From an uncultured Chloroflexia bacterium (GTDB lineage Bacteria > Chloroflexota > Limnocylindria > Limnocylindrales > CSP1-4), in assembly GCA_963766735.1 (NCBI GenBank), contig CAVYBU010000007.1, forward strand, positions 288,001 through 352,000: DNA of 64,000 nucleotides. Reading direction: 5' to 3'. This document shows positions 48,616-55,617 of the stretch, piece by piece; positions within the stretch are counted from its first letter, which is position 1; the number at the start of each line of letters is the position of its first letter. A model generated the notes under the pieces. The model did no database searches. It saw only the letters and a list, made by a program, of their open reading frames with translations, and was not told the origin of the DNA. Position numbers and translations under genes: made by a program.

Positions 48616-49443
48616 TCAGCGCGGGCGCACCCGCGGGAACGTGCCGTCGTACGCGGGCACCAGGGAGTCGCCCAGCTCGTCCTCCCCCACCCCGCGGAGG
48701 CCCGCCGCCCAGCGGGCCGTGATCGACACCCAGGCCGGCTCGTTGCGCGACCGCGGGGCTCCCGGCGGCGACAGGAACGGCGAATCCGTCTCGACCAGGA
48801 GCCGCTCCGCGGGGACGAGGGCGACCGCCTCCGCCGAGGGCTCCTCGCCGCGCCGGAACACGAGGCCGGAGAAGCTCACCGCGAGGCCCATCGCGATCAC
48901 CGTCTCCGCGTAGTCCACGGGACCAGAGAAGCTGTGGATCACCGCCGGTGGCCGGCTGCCGAACGCCGCCCGTGCCGGCGCCCCGTCGAACCCCGCTGCC
49001 CTCAGCTCGTCCACGAGCGCGTCCTGCGCGTCGCGCGCGCCGGCGCGCGAGCGACAGTGGAGGATCGCCGGCTTCCCGGTCGCCAGCGCGAGCGCGAGGT
49101 TGGCCCGCAGATTGTCCAGCTGGGCGTCCCACGGCGAGAACATCCGGTCCGAGTCGAGACCGGTCTCCCCGATTCCGACCACCCGCTCGTCACGTGCCCA
49201 GCCCTCGATCGCCCCCCACTCGGCATCCGTCACCTTCGCGGCGTCGTGGGGATGCACTCCGACGGCCGCGTCCAGCCACGACCATTGGTCGGCCAGGTCC
49301 AGCGCACGCTCGGACGAGTGGGCGTTCCAGCCCGGGACGAGGATCCGCTCGAGCCCGGCCAGGCGCGCGTCATCCACCACGGCTCCGACGTCGTCCGCGA
49401 AGCGGTCCGCGTTGAGATGCCCGTGGGAGTCGATCAGGCGCAC
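48616..49443 (-). CDS. tatD: TatD-family hydrolase
   Basis: 'IDSHGHL', 'GVHPH', 'IGETGLD', 'ETDSPFL'. Confidence 0.92.
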   Translation of the reverse strand: MRLIDSHGHLNADRFADDVGAVVDDARLAGLERILVPGWNAHSSERALDLADQWSWLDAAVGVHPHDAAKVTDAEWGAIEGWARDERVVGIGETGLDSDRMFSPWDAQLDNLRANLALALATGKPAILHCRSRAGARDAQDALVDELRAAGFDGAPARAAFGSRPPAVIHSFSGPVDYAETVIAMGLAVSFSGLVFRRGEEPSAEAVALVPAERLLVETDSPFLSPPGAPRSRNEPAWVSITARWAAGLRGVGEDELGDSLVPAYDGTFPRVRPR

Positions 49444-49518: not shown

Positions 49519-49893
49519 TCAGCGGCGAGGGGCGTCGGGCGATGCCTCGAACAGGCCAACCTCGGTGCCCTCGGAATCGAGAACCACGGCAAACCGGCCC
49601 ATGCCCGCGCCGATCACCGTCGGGGCCTCCACGATCGACCCGCCGTTCGTTTCGGCCGCGGCGCAGGCATCCTCGAGCGAATCGACGGAGATGTAGATCC
49701 GGAGTGCCCTGGCGATCGTCTCGCCACGCGTGCCGATGGCCCCGCCCTGCCCTGGTGCGGTGCTGAACAGGTGGTAGCCGGGCATCTCCGGCATCTCGCC
49801 GAACTCCCAGCCCGCGACCGCGGCATAGAAGCGCTTCGCGCGCTCGGGATCGTCGGCGGGGAACTCGACGTGGGTGATCTCGCCTCTGGCCAT
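49519..49893 (-). CDS. VOC (glyoxalase/bleomycin resistance) family protein
   Basis: 'HVEFPADDPERAKRFY...GW', 'GRFAVVLDSEG'. Confidence 0.88.
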   Translation of the reverse strand: MARGEITHVEFPADDPERAKRFYAAVAGWEFGEMPEMPGYHLFSTAPGQGGAIGTRGETIARALRIYISVDSLEDACAAAETNGGSIVEAPTVIGAGMGRFAVVLDSEGTEVGLFEASPDAPRR

Positions 49894-49964
49894 GACCAGC
49901 ACCTCGTGGGACGCGGAGTGGACCCGGAGCATACGGCGACGGCGTCGGCGCGGCTCCAGACGGA

Positions 49965-51614
49965 CTACGCCTCCGGGGCTTCGGCCGTCTCGATCTCGAT
50001 GCGCGGGAACAGCGGCACGGGCGTGTCGGTCACCCGGCCGGGACTGCTCGCCGCTCCCCACACCAGCAGCTCCAGGATCCCGGGGCCACCGTTGCCGTCC
50101 TCCGCGTACGGATACGTGTACCCGAGCTGCTCCAGGATGCGCGGAGCGATGCCAGGCATGAACGGCGCAACCGCCAGCCCCACCAGCCTGCAGGCCTCGA
50201 CCAGGTCGCCCAGCACCCCCCGCAGGCGCGCCTCGGCTTCCACGTCGCCGGCCTTCGCTGCCTTCGCCAGCGTCCACGGCTGCTCGGCATCAACCGTCTT
50301 GTTCGCCCCGCCCACGAATTCCCAGAGCTCGCCCAGGGCGTCATGGAGGAGGGTGGCGTCCAGTCGCTCCCCGTACAGCCGCAGGGTGTCGGTCCAGCCC
50401 TCGGCCAGCGGCGACTGCCCGGCTGCGCGCGGATGCGGCCGTTCCCCGCCGAAGTACCGGTTGACCATCGAGACGGTGCGGTTGACGAGGTTGCCGAAGT
50501 CGTTGGCGAGGTCCGCGTTGTAGCGGCGGACGAACGAGTCCCAGGAGACCTCGGTATCACGATCGAAGGCGACCTCGCGCAGGGTCACGTACCGGGCGCC
50601 GTCCGCGCCGAACGCCGCGACGACCGCGTGGGGGTCCAGGAAGTTGCCCCGGCTCTTGCTCATCCGCTCGCCGCCCTGGACCAGCAGCCAGCCGTGGACC
50701 CAGACGTGCTTCGGCGCATCGATCCCGGCCGACCACAGCATCGCCGGCCAGTAGATGGTGTGGAAGCGGGCGATGTCCTTCCCGATCACGTGGAGATCCG
50801 CCGGCCACCACTCGCGGAACAGGTCCATGTTGTCCGGGAATCCTGCGCCGGTGATGTAGTTGATCAGCGCGTCGTACCAGACATAGATGGTGCCGGCGTC
50901 CGGGTCCCACGAACCGTCCGATCGCTGGGCGGACGATCCGTCCGGCATCACCGGGAACGGGATCCCCCACGTGGCGCCCGCGCGGCTGATCGAGAAGTCC
51001 TGCAGCCCCTGGCGGATGAAGCCCAGCATCTCGTTGCGCCGGTAGTCCGGCTGGACGAAGTCCGGGTTCTTCTCGTACCAGTCGAGCAGGCGGTCCTGGT
51101 AGGCCGACAGCCGGAAGAACCAGTTCCTCTCCGACAGCCACTGCAGCGGCACGTCCGGGTGATTGGGGCACTGCATGCCCTTCGCGGTCTCGTGCAGGTC
51201 GGAGGGCGCCTTGAAGCCCTCGCTGGGGCAGTACCAGCCGTCGTAGCTCGCCTGGTAGATGTCGCCGTTGGCGTACGCCTTGCGGACCATCTCCTGGGCG
51301 GAGCGGTAGTGGTCAGGGTCGGTGGTGCGGATGAACCGGTCGGGGCTGATGAGGAGCGCGTCCTCGGCCGCCCTGAACAGCGCCACCTTCTCGTCCACGA
51401 ACGCGCGAGGGGTGACTCCGAGGGCATCGGCGGACTGGGCGATGTTGACCGAGTGCTCGTCCGTGCCGGTCAGGAACCGCGTGTCGTCGCCCTGCATCCG
51501 GTGCCAGCGCGCGACCACGTCCGCCCCGATCACCTCGTACACGGTGTGGAGTCCGGGCGCGTTGTTCGCGTACGCGATGGCGGTGGTCAGGTAGAAGCGC
51601 TTGCGATCTGACAT
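49965..51614 (-). CDS. metG: Methionine--tRNA ligase (short form, atypical HIGH motif)
   Basis: 'FYLTTAI.Y.N', 'FLTGTDEH', 'YVWYDALINY', 'IGKDI.RFH.IYWPA', RMSKS. Confidence 0.95.
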   Translation of the reverse strand: MSDRKRFYLTTAIAYANNAPGLHTVYEVIGADVVARWHRMQGDDTRFLTGTDEHSVNIAQSADALGVTPRAFVDEKVALFRAAEDALLISPDRFIRTTDPDHYRSAQEMVRKAYANGDIYQASYDGWYCPSEGFKAPSDLHETAKGMQCPNHPDVPLQWLSERNWFFRLSAYQDRLLDWYEKNPDFVQPDYRRNEMLGFIRQGLQDFSISRAGATWGIPFPVMPDGSSAQRSDGSWDPDAGTIYVWYDALINYITGAGFPDNMDLFREWWPADLHVIGKDIARFHTIYWPAMLWSAGIDAPKHVWVHGWLLVQGGERMSKSRGNFLDPHAVVAAFGADGARYVTLREVAFDRDTEVSWDSFVRRYNADLANDFGNLVNRTVSMVNRYFGGERPHPRAAGQSPLAEGWTDTLRLYGERLDATLLHDALGELWEFVGGANKTVDAEQPWTLAKAAKAGDVEAEARLRGVLGDLVEACRLVGLAVAPFMPGIAPRILEQLGYTYPYAEDGNGGPGILELLVWGAASSPGRVTDTPVPLFPRIEIETAEAPEA

Positions 51615-51643: not shown

Positions 51644-52348
51644 TCAGCCGAGCCCCAACACCCCTGCGACGCGCCCGGCAACAACGGCGATTGCGTCGCC
51701 GGGACGACGTTCGAGGACCGGGATGCCGGCAGCCTCGGCGTCCTCGACCATCGCGCGGGCAAGATGGCGGTCCAGGGCCAGGAACCGCCCGACCGGGTCG
51801 GCGACCGCCGTCACACCGGCCACCATGTCGAGGAACGCGCGGCGATCCTCGGTCGCGGTCCAGACGCGGGCCTGGTCCGCGAGCGGCAGGGCGAGGCAGG
51901 CGACACGATCCGTCGCCACGACGCGAGCCAGCACCCCGACGCTCCCGAAACCGCCGTCGATGAGCAACTGGCGGTCGGGGTCCATGTCGCGGAGCTCGTC
52001 GACGAGCAGGTCCAGTGCCTCCGCGGTGCTGGCCGCCTGGAACGCGAGGTACGCCTCCGGCTCGAGCGCCAGCTGCCAGGCAAGGGGATCGGGCGCCACC
52101 GCCCAGGCGTGACTTGCCGGGTGGCGCGCCGCGTCGAACCTGCCGTGCCAGCTGCCGTAGATCCGGGCGTCCATGTCCAGCACGTCGATGCCCATGCGTT
52201 CGGCCAGCGCGGCACAGACCGTCGTCTTGCCCGTGCCCGCGGCCCCGACGACGAACCGGAGCCCGGATCTCGCCTGCAGGGCTTCCCGGGCGCCGTCGAC
52301 CAGTGCGGCATCTACCGGGCCGGCCTCGCCGTGTGCCATCCCGGTCAT
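51644..52348 (-). CDS. P-loop small-molecule kinase-like protein
   Basis: Walker A 'GAAGTGKTT', 'VLDMD', 'LLIDGG'. Confidence 0.65.
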   Translation of the reverse strand: MTGMAHGEAGPVDAALVDGAREALQARSGLRFVVGAAGTGKTTVCAALAERMGIDVLDMDARIYGSWHGRFDAARHPASHAWAVAPDPLAWQLALEPEAYLAFQAASTAEALDLLVDELRDMDPDRQLLIDGGFGSVGVLARVVATDRVACLALPLADQARVWTATEDRRAFLDMVAGVTAVADPVGRFLALDRHLARAMVEDAEAAGIPVLERRPGDAIAVVAGRVAGVLGLG

Positions 52349-53313
52349 CGGAGCGCTGCGCTGAAGAAGCCTGCCAGGCGCTCCTCGTACAGCTCGGGAT
52401 CGACGAAGGCAGCCTGCACGTGTTCCACTCCCTCGAGGATCCACGGATCGACGGCTGTTCCACCCTGGCCCGCGGCAGCGGCGAGCGCGATGCCCTGGCT
52501 GACGTCGATGGTGGCGTCCGATGAGCCGTGGACGATGTACACGGGACGGCCCGCCAGCCTGGTCCGGAAGTAGTCCGCCGGGCTCGCTCCGAGCAGGTCG
52601 TCGCCGCCGATGATCCCGCCGATGAAGAGCGCACCGGGGACGAGCCAGCCGGGTTTGTCGTTGGCGTCGGCGTAGAAGGTCGACGCCTCCAGGATGTTGG
52701 CGTACGGGCTGTCGAGAAAGGCCGCTGCAATCGCGGGCTCGCGACCCATCGCGATCGAGACAGACCCGGCGCCCATCGAGCTGCCGTACAGGCCGATGTG
52801 ATCCGCCGTGTACCCCAGGTCCCGGAGCCACTGCCAGGCGCCCAGCACGTCCTGCCACTCGTCGGTGCCGCCAGCCCAATGCCCGTCCTCGCTGTCCAAT
52901 TCGCCGTGGTCCCGCAGATCCGGCACCAGCACCCCGAAGCCGGCCCGCGCAAGCATGCCCGCGGGCAGCAGCGAGGTGGCGTCGCGGCGGCACGAGCCCT
53001 TGCCGTGGACCACGATCACAACCCGATCCCCGCCGTCTCGCGGCGCGACCCACCAGGCGCGGAGCGTCAGCCCGGACGTGAGGCTCGGAATCGACACATC
53101 CTGCGCGTCGAAGTGGAACGCGGCGGCGTCCACGAACGGCCCGGTCTCCTGGTTCCACGCGCCGACGAAGTTCGCAGGCGTCTGGGTGGTGCGCGTGGCG
53201 AGGCAGCTCCCATCGACCGTCGTGATCTGGTCCCAGGCGGCGGCCGACACCCCGAGGTACGCCACCACCCCAACCCCAACAGCGAGGACCAGGGCGATCA
53301 GCAGTTTGCGCAC
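52345..53313 (-). CDS. Membrane-anchored or secreted alpha/beta hydrolase
   Basis: N-terminal TM, 'VVHG', 'DLRDHG', GSSMG, 'VHGSSD', catalytic His. Confidence 0.85.
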   Translation of the reverse strand: MRKLLIALVLAVGVGVVAYLGVSAAAWDQITTVDGSCLATRTTQTPANFVGAWNQETGPFVDAAAFHFDAQDVSIPSLTSGLTLRAWWVAPRDGGDRVVIVVHGKGSCRRDATSLLPAGMLARAGFGVLVPDLRDHGELDSEDGHWAGGTDEWQDVLGAWQWLRDLGYTADHIGLYGSSMGAGSVSIAMGREPAIAAAFLDSPYANILEASTFYADANDKPGWLVPGALFIGGIIGGDDLLGASPADYFRTRLAGRPVYIVHGSSDATIDVSQGIALAAAAGQGGTAVDPWILEGVEHVQAAFVDPELYEERLAGFFSAALR

Positions 53314-53349: not shown

Positions 53350-55617
53350 TCAGTGGCGGAAGTGCCGGGTACCGGTCACGAGCATCGCCGCGCCGGCGGC
53401 CTCGACGTCCACGAGGACCTCCGCGTCCCGCATCGATCCGCCGGGCTGGACGATGGCGCTCACGCCCGCGTCGAGCAGCACACGGGGGCCGTCCGCGAAC
53501 GGGAAGAACGCGTCCGACGCGGCGGCGGCGCCGATCGCGCCTGCTGCGCCCTGGAACAGGCGCGCCTTGTCAACGGCCCCGCGGCAGGCATCCACGCGGC
53601 TGACCTGCCCGGAGCCGACGCCGATGAGCATCCCGTCCCGCACGAGCACGATGGCGTTGGAGACCACTCCCCGGCAAAGGCGCCAGGCGAGGTCCAGGTC
53701 ACGCCGCTCGGCATCCGTCGGCGGCCGCGAGGTGGTGCAGCTCCACTCCGCGGGGTCGTCGATCAGGATGTCAGGGGCGGTGACGAGGACGGCCCCACCG
53801 GCAGTCCGGAACGACCCCAGGTAGTCCACGGCCAGGAGGCCGCGCTTCGTCAGCCCGCTCCGGTCCGCGGCAGCGTCCAGGCTCGGATCCAGGACCAGTC
53901 GCAGGTTCGGCTTCGCCGCCATGACCGCGCGGGCGTCTTCGTCGAACGCCGGCGCGACCACCACCTCGAGGAAGATCGAGACCAGCCGCTCGGCCAGGGC
54001 CCGCTCCACGGTGCCGGTGACCGCCACCACGCCGCCGAAGGCCGAGACAGGGTCGCCGGCCAGCGCCGAATCCCATGCCTCGAGCAGGGTTTCGCGCTCG
54101 GCGGCGCCGCACGGGTTCGTGTGCTTGACGATGACCACGGCGGGGCCGCGCATGAGGCGTGCGAGGGAGGCCGCGGCGGACGCGTCGAGCACGTTGTTGT
54201 AGCTGAGCGCCTTGCCCTGGAGCGGCGGCTCGCCGCTCGCGAAGGGCCCCTCCGCGGTTCGCGGTTCACGGTCGGTGCGGCGGTAGCGAGCGGCCGGCTG
54301 GTGGGGGTTCTCGCCGTAGCGGAGGGACTCGACCTTCTCGAGCGAGATCGTCAACACCGGCGGGTACGGGTCTTCGGAGCCTGGCAGACCGGGCTCCGGG
54401 GGAAGCTCCACCCCCGCCTCGAGCATCCGGCACGGCAGCTCCGCGGCAATGCGCGCGTCGTAGGCGGCGGTGTGGCGGAACGCCTCCACGGCAAGCGCGG
54501 ATCGGAGGCCCAGCGGGACCTCGCCCTGCTCGTCCAGCGCGGCAAGGACCTCGCCGTACTGCGCGGGCGAGGTGACGATCGCCACCGACGCGTGGTTCTT
54601 GGCGGCAGCGCGGACCATCGACGGCCCGCCGATGTCGATCTCCTCCACGAGGCCGTCGAAGGAGAGGTCGGACCTGCGGGCGGCGGCGGCGAACGGGTAG
54701 AGGTTGACGACGACGAGACCGAAGGGCGCGATGCCTGAGGCCAGGAGCGCCTCGCGGTGGTCGGCGCGGCGACGGTCCGCGAGGAGTCCTCCGTGGACCC
54801 GCGGGTGGAGCGTCTTCACGCGGCCGTCGAGCATCTCCGGGAAGCCGGTCACGGCCGCGACATCGGTCACGGGGAGACCCGCCTCGCGCAGTGCCCGCGC
54901 CGTGCCGCCGGTGCTGACCAGCTCCCAGCCACGGGCGACCAGGCCGCGACCCAGCTCGGCCAGGCCGGTCTTCTCGTAGACGGAGAGGAGGGCCCGTCGC
55001 GGGACGGGGAGGCGGGCATCGGCAACGGCCGTGTCCAGGCGCGCGCGCCGGGCGCCGGGGGCCACCGTGAGCGCCCCGGCCAGCAGCGCTGCCACGGTTG
55101 CCGGCAGGAGCCGGTGCTCGATCGGGTGGATCCGCGCCAGCAGCGAGGCCTCGTCGTCGTCCGGCAGCACCGGGACCGCCTCCTGGGCTGCGATCGGCCC
55201 ACCGTCCAACGTGGCGTCCACGAGGTGCACGGTCACGCCGCTCACGGCCACGCCGGCGGCCAGGGCGTCGCGCACCGCATGGAGGCCGGGAAATGACGGC
55301 AGCAGAGATGGATGGACGTTCAGGATCCGGCCACCGAAGGCCGCCAGGACCGCGGGGCCGATCAACCGCAGATACCCGGCCAGGACGACGACGTCCGGGG
55401 CCACGGCCAGCAGCGTCTCGGCCAGCGTCTCGTCATCGCCGCCGGGGACCAGGATCGTGTCGATCCCCTGCTCCGCCGCCCAGTCCAGCCCCGGGCACGG
55501 CCGATCCGCGAAGACGAGGACCACGTCACCGCCCAGCGTCCCCCGCCCCGCCGCTGCGACCAGCGAGCGCAGGTTGGACCCGGTGCCCGACACCCCGACC
55601 GCGATCCTGCCGCTCAC
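53350..55617 (-). CDS. purH: Fused PurN-PurH (GAR transformylase plus AICAR transformylase/IMP cyclohydrolase)
   Basis: PurN 'SGTGSNL...NVHPSLLP.F.G' then PurH 'GRVKTLHP', 'IDIGGP', 'LRYGENPHQ', 'SDAFFPF', 'RHFRH' in a single frame. Confidence 0.93.
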   Translation of the reverse strand: MSGRIAVGVSGTGSNLRSLVAAAGRGTLGGDVVLVFADRPCPGLDWAAEQGIDTILVPGGDDETLAETLLAVAPDVVVLAGYLRLIGPAVLAAFGGRILNVHPSLLPSFPGLHAVRDALAAGVAVSGVTVHLVDATLDGGPIAAQEAVPVLPDDDEASLLARIHPIEHRLLPATVAALLAGALTVAPGARRARLDTAVADARLPVPRRALLSVYEKTGLAELGRGLVARGWELVSTGGTARALREAGLPVTDVAAVTGFPEMLDGRVKTLHPRVHGGLLADRRRADHREALLASGIAPFGLVVVNLYPFAAAARRSDLSFDGLVEEIDIGGPSMVRAAAKNHASVAIVTSPAQYGEVLAALDEQGEVPLGLRSALAVEAFRHTAAYDARIAAELPCRMLEAGVELPPEPGLPGSEDPYPPVLTISLEKVESLRYGENPHQPAARYRRTDREPRTAEGPFASGEPPLQGKALSYNNVLDASAAASLARLMRGPAVVIVKHTNPCGAAERETLLEAWDSALAGDPVSAFGGVVAVTGTVERALAERLVSIFLEVVVAPAFDEDARAVMAAKPNLRLVLDPSLDAAADRSGLTKRGLLAVDYLGSFRTAGGAVLVTAPDILIDDPAEWSCTTSRPPTDAERRDLDLAWRLCRGVVSNAIVLVRDGMLIGVGSGQVSRVDACRGAVDKARLFQGAAGAIGAAAASDAFFPFADGPRVLLDAGVSAIVQPGGSMRDAEVLVDVEAAGAAMLVTGTRHFRH

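Follow-up and report, generated by a model that had tools for sequence, protein, structure and literature searches.

A methionyl-tRNA synthetase gene of Candidatus Limnocylindria with exchanged positions 1 and 3 in its class I signature

Class I aminoacyl-tRNA synthetases are defined by two signatures. In one of them, the HIGH motif, conservation is highest at the first residue, His, and at the third, Gly. Here, a methionyl-tRNA synthetase (MetRS) gene, metG, is described in which these two residues are exchanged, with the protein reading GLHT. The gene lies in a stretch of 64,000 nucleotides (hereafter, the window) from contig CAVYBU010000007.1, positions 288,001 to 352,000, and the host is a soil or freshwater Chloroflexota bacterium of the class Candidatus Limnocylindria. 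The reading favored here, to which a probability of roughly 0.78 is given, is that metG encodes the working housekeeping MetRS of this bacterium, in which the single essential His of a HIGH-type signature has moved from position 1 to position 3.

The metG locus and its class I signature

On the minus strand of the window, metG is found upstream of a small VOC gene, which is followed by a tatD-family gene (Table 1). The metG protein, P0001, matches the Pfam model PF09334 with 301 bits (E = 1.4e-89; cut-off 20.1) and the NCBIfam model TIGR00398 with 422.2 bits (cut-off 336.35), while its score of 532.9 for the narrower equivalog NF008900 is under the cut-off of 598. When PDB chains are searched with phmmer, the top matches are MetRS1 enzymes, among them the M. 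tuberculosis MetRS chains 5xet, 5xgq, and 6ax8 (E about 5e-125). By these three kinds of match, the product is a MetRS and not a type 2 isoleucyl-tRNA synthetase (IleRS2), the enzyme for which a signature exchange has been described.

Read along the minus strand from 51554 to 51543, the codons GGA CTC CAC ACC encode G21, L22, H23, and T24 in the context TTAIAYANNAP-GLHT-VYEVIGADVVAR, with YANNAP-GLHT-VYE as the residues around the signature, and the 549-aa frame is open throughout. At the N terminus of helix alpha1, where class I enzymes present H-x-G-[H/T/S/N], this protein presents G-L-H-T. Its Gly21 and His23 correspond to a swapped signature (Gly or Ala at position 1, His at position 3), and position 4 is Thr24 instead of the His that is typical of G/AXHH. 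In the phmmer alignment, residues 5-107 run without gaps on M. tuberculosis MetRS and GLHT lands exactly on 18-HVGH-21. Similarly, in a MAFFT alignment of MetRS sequences, the segment from T10 to about V34 is free of gaps in 66 of 66 rows, and Y15, N17, P20, and D32 stay in register on both sides of the motif. Because these conserved flanks align without gaps on either side, neither a register shift nor an indel can explain the motif, and sequence comparison confirms it as a true permutation of positions 1 and 3. The initial annotation had proposed just such an exchange, in an intact frame, with codons that no single indel could have produced and together with a second signature reading RMSKS, and it is borne out in each of these respects.

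As the source is a metagenome-assembled genome, an error of sequencing, assembly, or alignment must be considered. Nevertheless, the same motif is present in more than 200 independent assemblies, where it is written with synonymous codons, and both of its flanks are aligned gap-free; it is almost certainly not an artefact.

The rest of the enzyme is intact. Of the columns that are invariant across 104 aligned MetRS, or conserved in 90% or more of them, none is altered in P0001; they include Y15, N17, P20, D32, D52, W246, H285, H307, G308, S319, and K320. Six of these (Y15, D52, W246, H285, H307, and G308) belong to the Met and adenylate pocket, with roles taken from what the available text of PMC6038951 says of M. 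tuberculosis MetRS, while S319 and K320 are part of the RMSKS motif at residues 317-321. Lys is the first residue of the KMSKS motif in 92% of 59 canonical representatives; among the 120 closest homologues of P0001, RMSKS is read in 99 and KMSKS in 19. An AlphaFold2 model of P0001, computed on the same 104-sequence alignment (mean pLDDT 94.9, pTM 0.93), has the MetRS1 fold with its helical anticodon-binding domain, and helix alpha1 begins in it at residue 22. All of the top 50 Foldseek matches of this model are MetRS, with M. tuberculosis 6ax8 first (TM-score 0.93). Thus, the fold and the remaining active site of the swapped enzyme are shown, by alignment and predicted structure, to be those of MetRS1.

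M. tuberculosis MetRS (6ax8, 5xet) is 42% identical to P0001 and has the same domain order. Its contacts with methionyl-adenylate (Met-AMP) through Ala9, Ile10, Ala11, Tyr12, Glu24, Asp49, Gly261, Asp263, Ile264, His290, and Gly291 have identical counterparts in P0001. By contrast, HVGH becomes GLHT (His18 to Gly, Gly20 to His, and His21 to Thr), KMSKS becomes RMSKS, and P0001 carries a 15-residue insertion after WGIP.

The genome from which the window comes (35 contigs, 93.85% complete) has one full-length PF09334 match, metG itself. Its weaker matches are the synthetases for Leu (LeuRS, HIGH), Val (ValRS, HLGH), and Cys (CysRS, HIGN) and the class I LysRS (HVGS); a second metG, for which a check had been advised, is not among the matches in this genome, and no canonical paralogue was found. 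In related genomes, tatD stands beside metG in 41 of 43 loci, across five families of Candidatus Limnocylindria (f1, f2, f3, f4, and f5) and another Chloroflexota family (f19), and a VOC homologue occupies the position between metG and tatD in 10 of the 43. The earlier suggestion that this is the housekeeping copy next to tatD is, therefore, upheld by the only full PF09334 match and the conserved linkage, with the correction that a VOC gene intervenes. Sequence and gene order support metG as the housekeeping MetRS of this genome.

Table 1. Features of the metG region of the window, followed by MetRS loci of other genomes that are discussed in the text
Feature	Position or locus	Strand	Basis
metG, 549-aa MetRS1-type methionine--tRNA ligase (P0001)	49965..51614	-	Open reading frame and translation, PF09334, TIGR00398, PDB matches, AlphaFold2 model
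Permuted class I signature G21-L22-H23-T24, replacing H-x-G-H/T	51543..51554	-	Codons; gap-free alignment on HVGH/HLGT
Second class I signature R317-M-S-K-S321 (KMSKS loop)	50652..50666	-	Translation; homologue comparison
15-residue insertion S227-G241, between the WGIP and YVW motifs	50892..50936	-	Gap in the M. tuberculosis chain
Small glyoxalase/bleomycin-resistance-fold (VOC) gene, 137 aa, flanked by metG and tatD	49519..49932	-	PF00903 6.7e-08, PF22677 1.6e-08
tatD-family hydrolase gene, downstream of metG	48616..49443	-	PF01026 1.1e-52
P-loop protein gene, upstream of metG	51644-52402	-	Weak AAA-type Pfam matches below cut-offs; sole match above cut-off, IPT (21 vs 20 bits)
755-aa open reading frame, PurN + MGS-like domain + PurH	53350-55617	-	PF00551 (PurN), PF01808 (PurH)
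MetRS loci of family f19	L173 (G495:C29), L174-L176, L187, L188, L177/L166 (G657:C68); plus L156		
Canonical MetRS loci in the class	L182 (G044:C17), L191 (G055:C5), L192 (G105:C184), L190 (G214:C9)		

Distribution of the exchange and selection on the motif

All of the 120 best-listed database homologues of P0001, which are 77-90% identical to it, carry GLHT, and several of them are titled Candidatus Limnocylindrales or Chloroflexota. A regular expression located a KMSKS-type motif in 118 of them and left 2 without one; P0079, also among the 120, was mis-read by regular expression owing to an N-terminal extension. GLHT is likewise present in 29 of the 30 loci fetched from 40 relatives, the exception being L027, which is without its N terminus. 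Eight of these GLHT loci come from the second family, f2, with genomes of about 1.1 Mb and 64% identity.

At the DNA level, a strict GLHT pattern (PG[LVI]HT.[YF]E) has a single match in each of 85 of 91 f1 and 11 of 12 f2 genomes, and none in 92 f3, 103 f4, and 2 f5 genomes; the reversed control gives 0 matches. Four of the six f1 misses have GLHT followed by L-H-E, one (G268) has an ALHS-type signature, and one (G235) is without a MetRS match. The MetRS of G268 (L045, G268:C89:13833-18398) resembles those of f4, is 57% identical to P0001, and contains one in-frame TGA; it may come from a binning error or from gene transfer.

The other families of the class carry further versions of the swap, namely, ALHS or PLHS in f4, GLHH in f3, and GLHF in f5, giving a class-wide motif of [G/A/P]-[L/V/I]-H-[T/S/H/F/Y]. 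A wider pattern, TT[A/P]I.Y....P.[NTN]H........D, was applied to 401 Chloroflexota genomes, with a sensitivity at which 5 of 23 f1 genomes with known GLHT are missed. It matched 40 genomes of the class and only 1 of 355 others, the f19 genome G657, where the signature is ALHY. Over all species genomes, the same pattern finds at least 120 loci. Among the matches listed are GLHT (79), GLHH (11), ALHS (11), PLHS (10), GVHT (4), and GLHY (2), with GIHT, GLHF, and ALHY once each; His occurs at position 4 only in the 11 GLHH relatives from f3. Chloroflexota titles stand on 115 of these matches, and all of them are Limnocylindria-type or ALHY-type MetRS, within the reach of a pattern that demands the TT[A/P]I.Y....P context and does not extend to MetRS2-type enzymes. 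These comparisons show the swap to be an old trait of the whole class and not a peculiarity of the gene in the window. As a result, the singularity initially attributed to this MetRS is lost, although the exchange itself is real.

Position 4 is where canonical relatives also vary. From the 150 best representatives of 50%-identity clusters, 139 rows, with the query included, were readable at the motif. Nine of them have the swap, each at least 52% identical to the query, 3 are blank, and the remaining 127 of 127 are H-x-G-x. The fourth residue of the latter is His in 82, Thr in 22, Ser in 10, Asn in 8, Phe in 3, and Tyr and Trp in 1 each; in other words, 45 of 127 (35%) are without the fourth His, which, on this sequence evidence, is naturally dispensable in MetRS1. 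Since so many natural MetRS1 enzymes do without this residue, Thr24 is an ordinary variant and the novelty lies in the exchange of His1 and Gly3. Natural HxGT, HxGS, HxGN, HxGF, and HxGY enzymes are similar to P0001 in having replaced the fourth His in what is still a housekeeping enzyme; they differ in keeping His at position 1 and Gly at position 3 without exception. The nearest canonical relatives of P0001 read HLGT, HVGT, HLGF, or HLGY.

Once swapped, the motif seems to be held tightly. Among 116 distinct DNA stretches that encode it, position 3 is always His, written as CAC in 107 and CAT in 9. Elsewhere in the motif, synonymous codons abound, with GGC, GGG, GGT, and GGA for Gly, CTC, CTG, TTG, and CTT for Leu, and ACC, ACG, and ACT for Thr. 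Because codons vary synonymously while the His is constant, the permuted motif is shown, as far as codon usage can tell, to be fixed throughout the class and maintained by purifying selection. This selection, together with metG being the only MetRS-family gene of its genome, leads us to infer that its product charges tRNA-Met with methionine.

The opposite view would be that the metG product is an inactive or re-purposed paralogue and that another enzyme charges methionine. MetRS-like domains are indeed reported to act in hydrazine biosynthesis, according to the part of that literature available, and the window genome is incomplete. Still, the genome has one MetRS-family gene, and a MetRS1-type protein is the best match in most genomes of the class (see below). 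In addition, P0001 has its full length, its anticodon-binding domain, RMSKS, and the complete set of pocket residues, the operon-like linkage of metG with tatD is conserved, and the purifying selection on the motif is strong. Loss or change of function is, thus, very improbable.

The class is not uniform in its use of the swapped enzyme. When 201 genomes of the class, each at least 85% complete, were searched with Pfam, 195 yielded a MetRS, and the best match is MetRS1-type in 185 of these (E from 1e-93 to 1e-32). In the other 10, a MetRS of a different type scores far better (at least 449 bits). Nine of these 10 genomes belong to f3, and the three that were read (G044, G055, and G105) encode canonical enzymes of 600 residues with AWPYTNGPR-HLGH. 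Because f3 genomes carry this canonical MetRS in its place, the swapped enzyme has been displaced at least once. The tenth, G214 of f1, has an E. coli-like MetRS of 685 aa with HIGH and KMSKS besides its own GLHT gene; this additional MetRS may stem from contamination or from gene transfer. Statements about sole copies come from Pfam searches only; searches with P0001 at E <= 1e-30 are blind to other MetRS types, and G044, for instance, was missed by them and found by Pfam. The tallies for the class include the unpublished genomes G102, G278, G122, G320, G146, G157, and G131, with G102 among the ten.

The history of the exchange was approached through a maximum-likelihood tree of 66 MetRS (quick IQ-TREE with SH-aLRT), from which the motif and its flanks (columns 262-273) had been removed. 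One clan of 26 rows (SH-aLRT 99) stands opposite 40 canonical sequences and consists of f1, f2, and f4 (18 rows; 100), f3 and f5 (3 rows; 100), and f19 (5 rows; 100). The f19 clade joins the ALHY sequence of G657 with sequences that have HLGF, HLGY, and QLGF, and the minimum number of state changes on the tree is 2. Judged from these sequences, the signature state is changed at least twice. The fork among the three groups and the one within f19 lack resolution, and because the latter is three-way, a second gain, giving ALHY, cannot be separated from a reversal, giving the H-x-G of f19. The mapping of the motif on a phylogeny that had been proposed initially yields this minimum number of changes.

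By the tree, the f19 enzymes (G339, G439, G552, G580, and G615) are the closest canonical relatives of the Limnocylindria enzymes. They share with them the clan, about 50% identity to P0001, and the metG-tatD linkage, and differ in the signature, which among the 7 f19 genomes with MetRS is HLGF in 4, HLGY in 1, QLGF in 1, and ALHY in 1 (G657). The QLGF member has CAG instead of CAC or CAT and consequently no His at all, at a distance of one base from HLGF, while the step from HLGY to ALHY costs about four base changes when codons are compared. The G657 protein is 78% identical to that of G339. ALHY is not an error, because a second species, represented by L156, also carries it; over 126 residues, this sequence shares 86.5% identity with G657, against 69% with G339.

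Possible accommodation of the moved histidine

The first His of the class I signature generally stabilises the transition state of amino acid activation. With Met-AMP bound to M. tuberculosis MetRS, the available text of PMC6038951 places N-epsilon2 of His18 at adenine N7, Gly20 on adenine C6 and N1, His21 at the alpha-phosphate, and Glu24 at the ribose 3'-OH. The counterparts of these residues in P0001 are Gly21, His23, Thr24, and Glu27. By analogy, the imidazole of His23 might fill, from position 3, the place of the first His, for which Gly, Ala, or Pro at position 1 would give room. Thr24 would take over the contact of the fourth residue with the alpha-phosphate, as in natural HxGT MetRS. 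Furthermore, the tip of helix alpha1 is probably displaced, in which case a bulky residue at position 3 could spare the placement of adenine.

The precedent for such an arrangement is IleRS2 with G/AXHH (Brkic et al. 2023, Nat Commun 14:5498; PMC10485003). In the available text of that work, crystal structures show the third His of GXHH with its N-epsilon2 at the location of the first His, the tip of helix alpha1 shifted by about 1.7-2.4 Å, the adenine undisturbed by the bulky third residue, and catalysis only mildly reduced. As far as this text goes, both systems have positions 1 and 3 exchanged, with Gly or Ala followed by His, and both concern housekeeping enzymes with broad inheritance and more than one origin or change; the GLHH of f3 MetRS is even identical to the IleRS2 form. 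Unlike IleRS2, the enzyme described here is a MetRS1, Pro is also found at position 1 of swapped MetRS, and position 4 is Thr (elsewhere Ser, Phe, or Tyr), leaving one His instead of two. In addition, no inhibitor is known to be linked to the swapped MetRS.

Several points weigh against a working enzyme with a relocated His. The placement of His23 relative to ATP is only inferred, by analogy. In PMC10485003, as available, IleRS1, which is without the helix shift, is inactivated by the swap, which means that tolerance is not a given, and a change from Gly to Pro at position 3 of MetRS is cited as severely harming kcat. A comparison of 41 swapped with 59 canonical rows found no co-varying residue common to all swapped subgroups. 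As for the housekeeping role, a minority of class members use a canonical MetRS (the nine f3 genomes, plus G214 with both types), and the missing part of the window genome leaves narrow room for a second metG.

In the co-variation comparison, the swapped rows are mostly from f1, and the canonical ones are those 59 of 142 that passed the regular expression. Within this sample, positions 21 and 23 alone separate swapped from canonical rows cleanly; the authors of the IleRS2 study, in its available text, likewise saw no simple determinant of tolerance. K317R, W305, V356, and others were considered as compensating changes and set aside as lineage-specific, being absent from some swapped subgroups. 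A link between the swap and the 15-residue insertion was also rejected. This insertion, SSAQRSDGSWDPDAG at S227-G241, is confined to rows from f1, f2, and other GLHT sequences, where it is present in 10 of 12 readable rows (5 from f1, 2 from f2, and 3 of 5 further GLHT rows, the window's own among them), and it occurs in none of the f3, f4, f5, or canonical rows.

Origin and significance of the exchange

There are two main proposals for why the swap became fixed. One is adaptation against a natural inhibitor that binds MetRS at its ATP or adenylate site; the swap would then confer intrinsic resistance as GXHH does against mupirocin. The initial annotation had cited the mupirocin hyper-resistance of G/AXHH IleRS2 as its precedent, correctly so according to the available text of PMC10485003, where the swap raises the Ki of mupirocin by up to 1000-fold. 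Furthermore, the IleRS of the window genome is swapped as well (GVHH), and the two or more state changes in the MetRS subfamily could reflect recurrent selection. Nevertheless, literature searches, which covered listings and abstracts, found no natural-product MetRS inhibitor contacting the HIGH region. Across an entire class, the gene with the swap is the sole housekeeping copy; it is neither an additional copy for resistance nor a neighbor of a biosynthetic cluster. Unlike the phylum-wide GxHH of IleRS, the swap is limited, in the Chloroflexota sample, to one class and one small lineage. Besides, in the available text of PMC10485003, the IleRS2 effect hung on groups specific to mupirocin, and binding of Ile-AMS was much the same in the swapped mutants. 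Therefore, the analogy with IleRS2, from which the initial annotation had derived a possible change in sensitivity to adenylate-like inhibitors, gives no reason to expect resistance to Met-AMS or REP8839, the latter of which is described, in the source text available, as binding an enlarged Met pocket and an auxiliary pocket. In sum, selection by an inhibitor seems an unlikely origin.

The IleRS of the window genome is encoded outside the window (L168/L169, G000:C7:221071-226101; a 1126-aa frame) and reads GPITANNPM-GVHH-AWG. When 401 Chloroflexota genomes were scanned for this context, 353 gave a match, including the unpublished G566, G629, G358, G454, and G527, and 144 of the 150 matches listed read G-x-H-H. 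GxHH IleRS seems, by this count, to be general in Chloroflexota. A phyletic coupling of the MetRS and IleRS swaps was considered and rejected, as the IleRS form is phylum-wide.

The other proposal is neutral or compensated drift under a relaxed constraint on the signature in this Chloroflexota MetRS subfamily. The variety of signatures among the seven f19 genomes speaks for it, as do the variability of the class at position 4 (T/S/H/F/Y) and position 1 (G/A/P) and the 35% of canonical MetRS1 representatives that are without the fourth His. By contrast, the His at position 3 is invariant once swapped, which indicates a strong constraint, and the passage from H-x-G to A/G-x-H takes about four nucleotide changes, probably through poorly active intermediates, and would be hard to complete by drift alone. 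Moreover, QLGF is known from a single metagenome-assembled genome and depends on a single base. On balance, drift of this kind is given a chance somewhat below even, and compensated drift within a MetRS subfamily with a relaxed motif is considered no less likely than inhibitor-driven selection.

A broader and rather doubtful proposal is that the exchange of His1 and Gly3 is a recurrent, general option of class I synthetases. The Limnocylindria MetRS would then hold the adenine and phosphate of ATP in a different manner and be intrinsically insensitive to some class of natural ATP-site or adenylate-mimicking compounds, having acquired the swap later, under a pressure similar to that behind the earlier GxHH of IleRS, and the HLGF, QLGF, and ALHY signatures of f19 would preserve the path.

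The 2023 report described the exchange as a surprising feature that appears "exclusively in IleRS2" and explained it as an adaptation for antibiotic resistance (PMC10485003, in the text available); in the available text of a 2026 paper from the same group, MetRS serves only as an outgroup. Full-text searches, with subscription journals and supplements outside their coverage, found no paper on a swapped signature in MetRS, which agrees with the earlier impression that the exchange had not been described for this enzyme.

The relevance of the finding to MetRS as a drug target is indirect only. It has a more immediate bearing on annotation, as rules that demand H-x-G would misjudge the swapped MetRS. 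In addition, the natural series of variants, with Gly, Ala, or Pro at position 1, Thr, Ser, His, Phe, or Tyr at position 4, and the HLGF, QLGF, and ALHY forms of f19, is well suited to dissecting the motif. Above all, a second synthetase family has the same exchange, in the sole housekeeping enzyme of most members of an environmentally abundant class and with no known inhibitor, which makes the permutation a more general evolutionary option.

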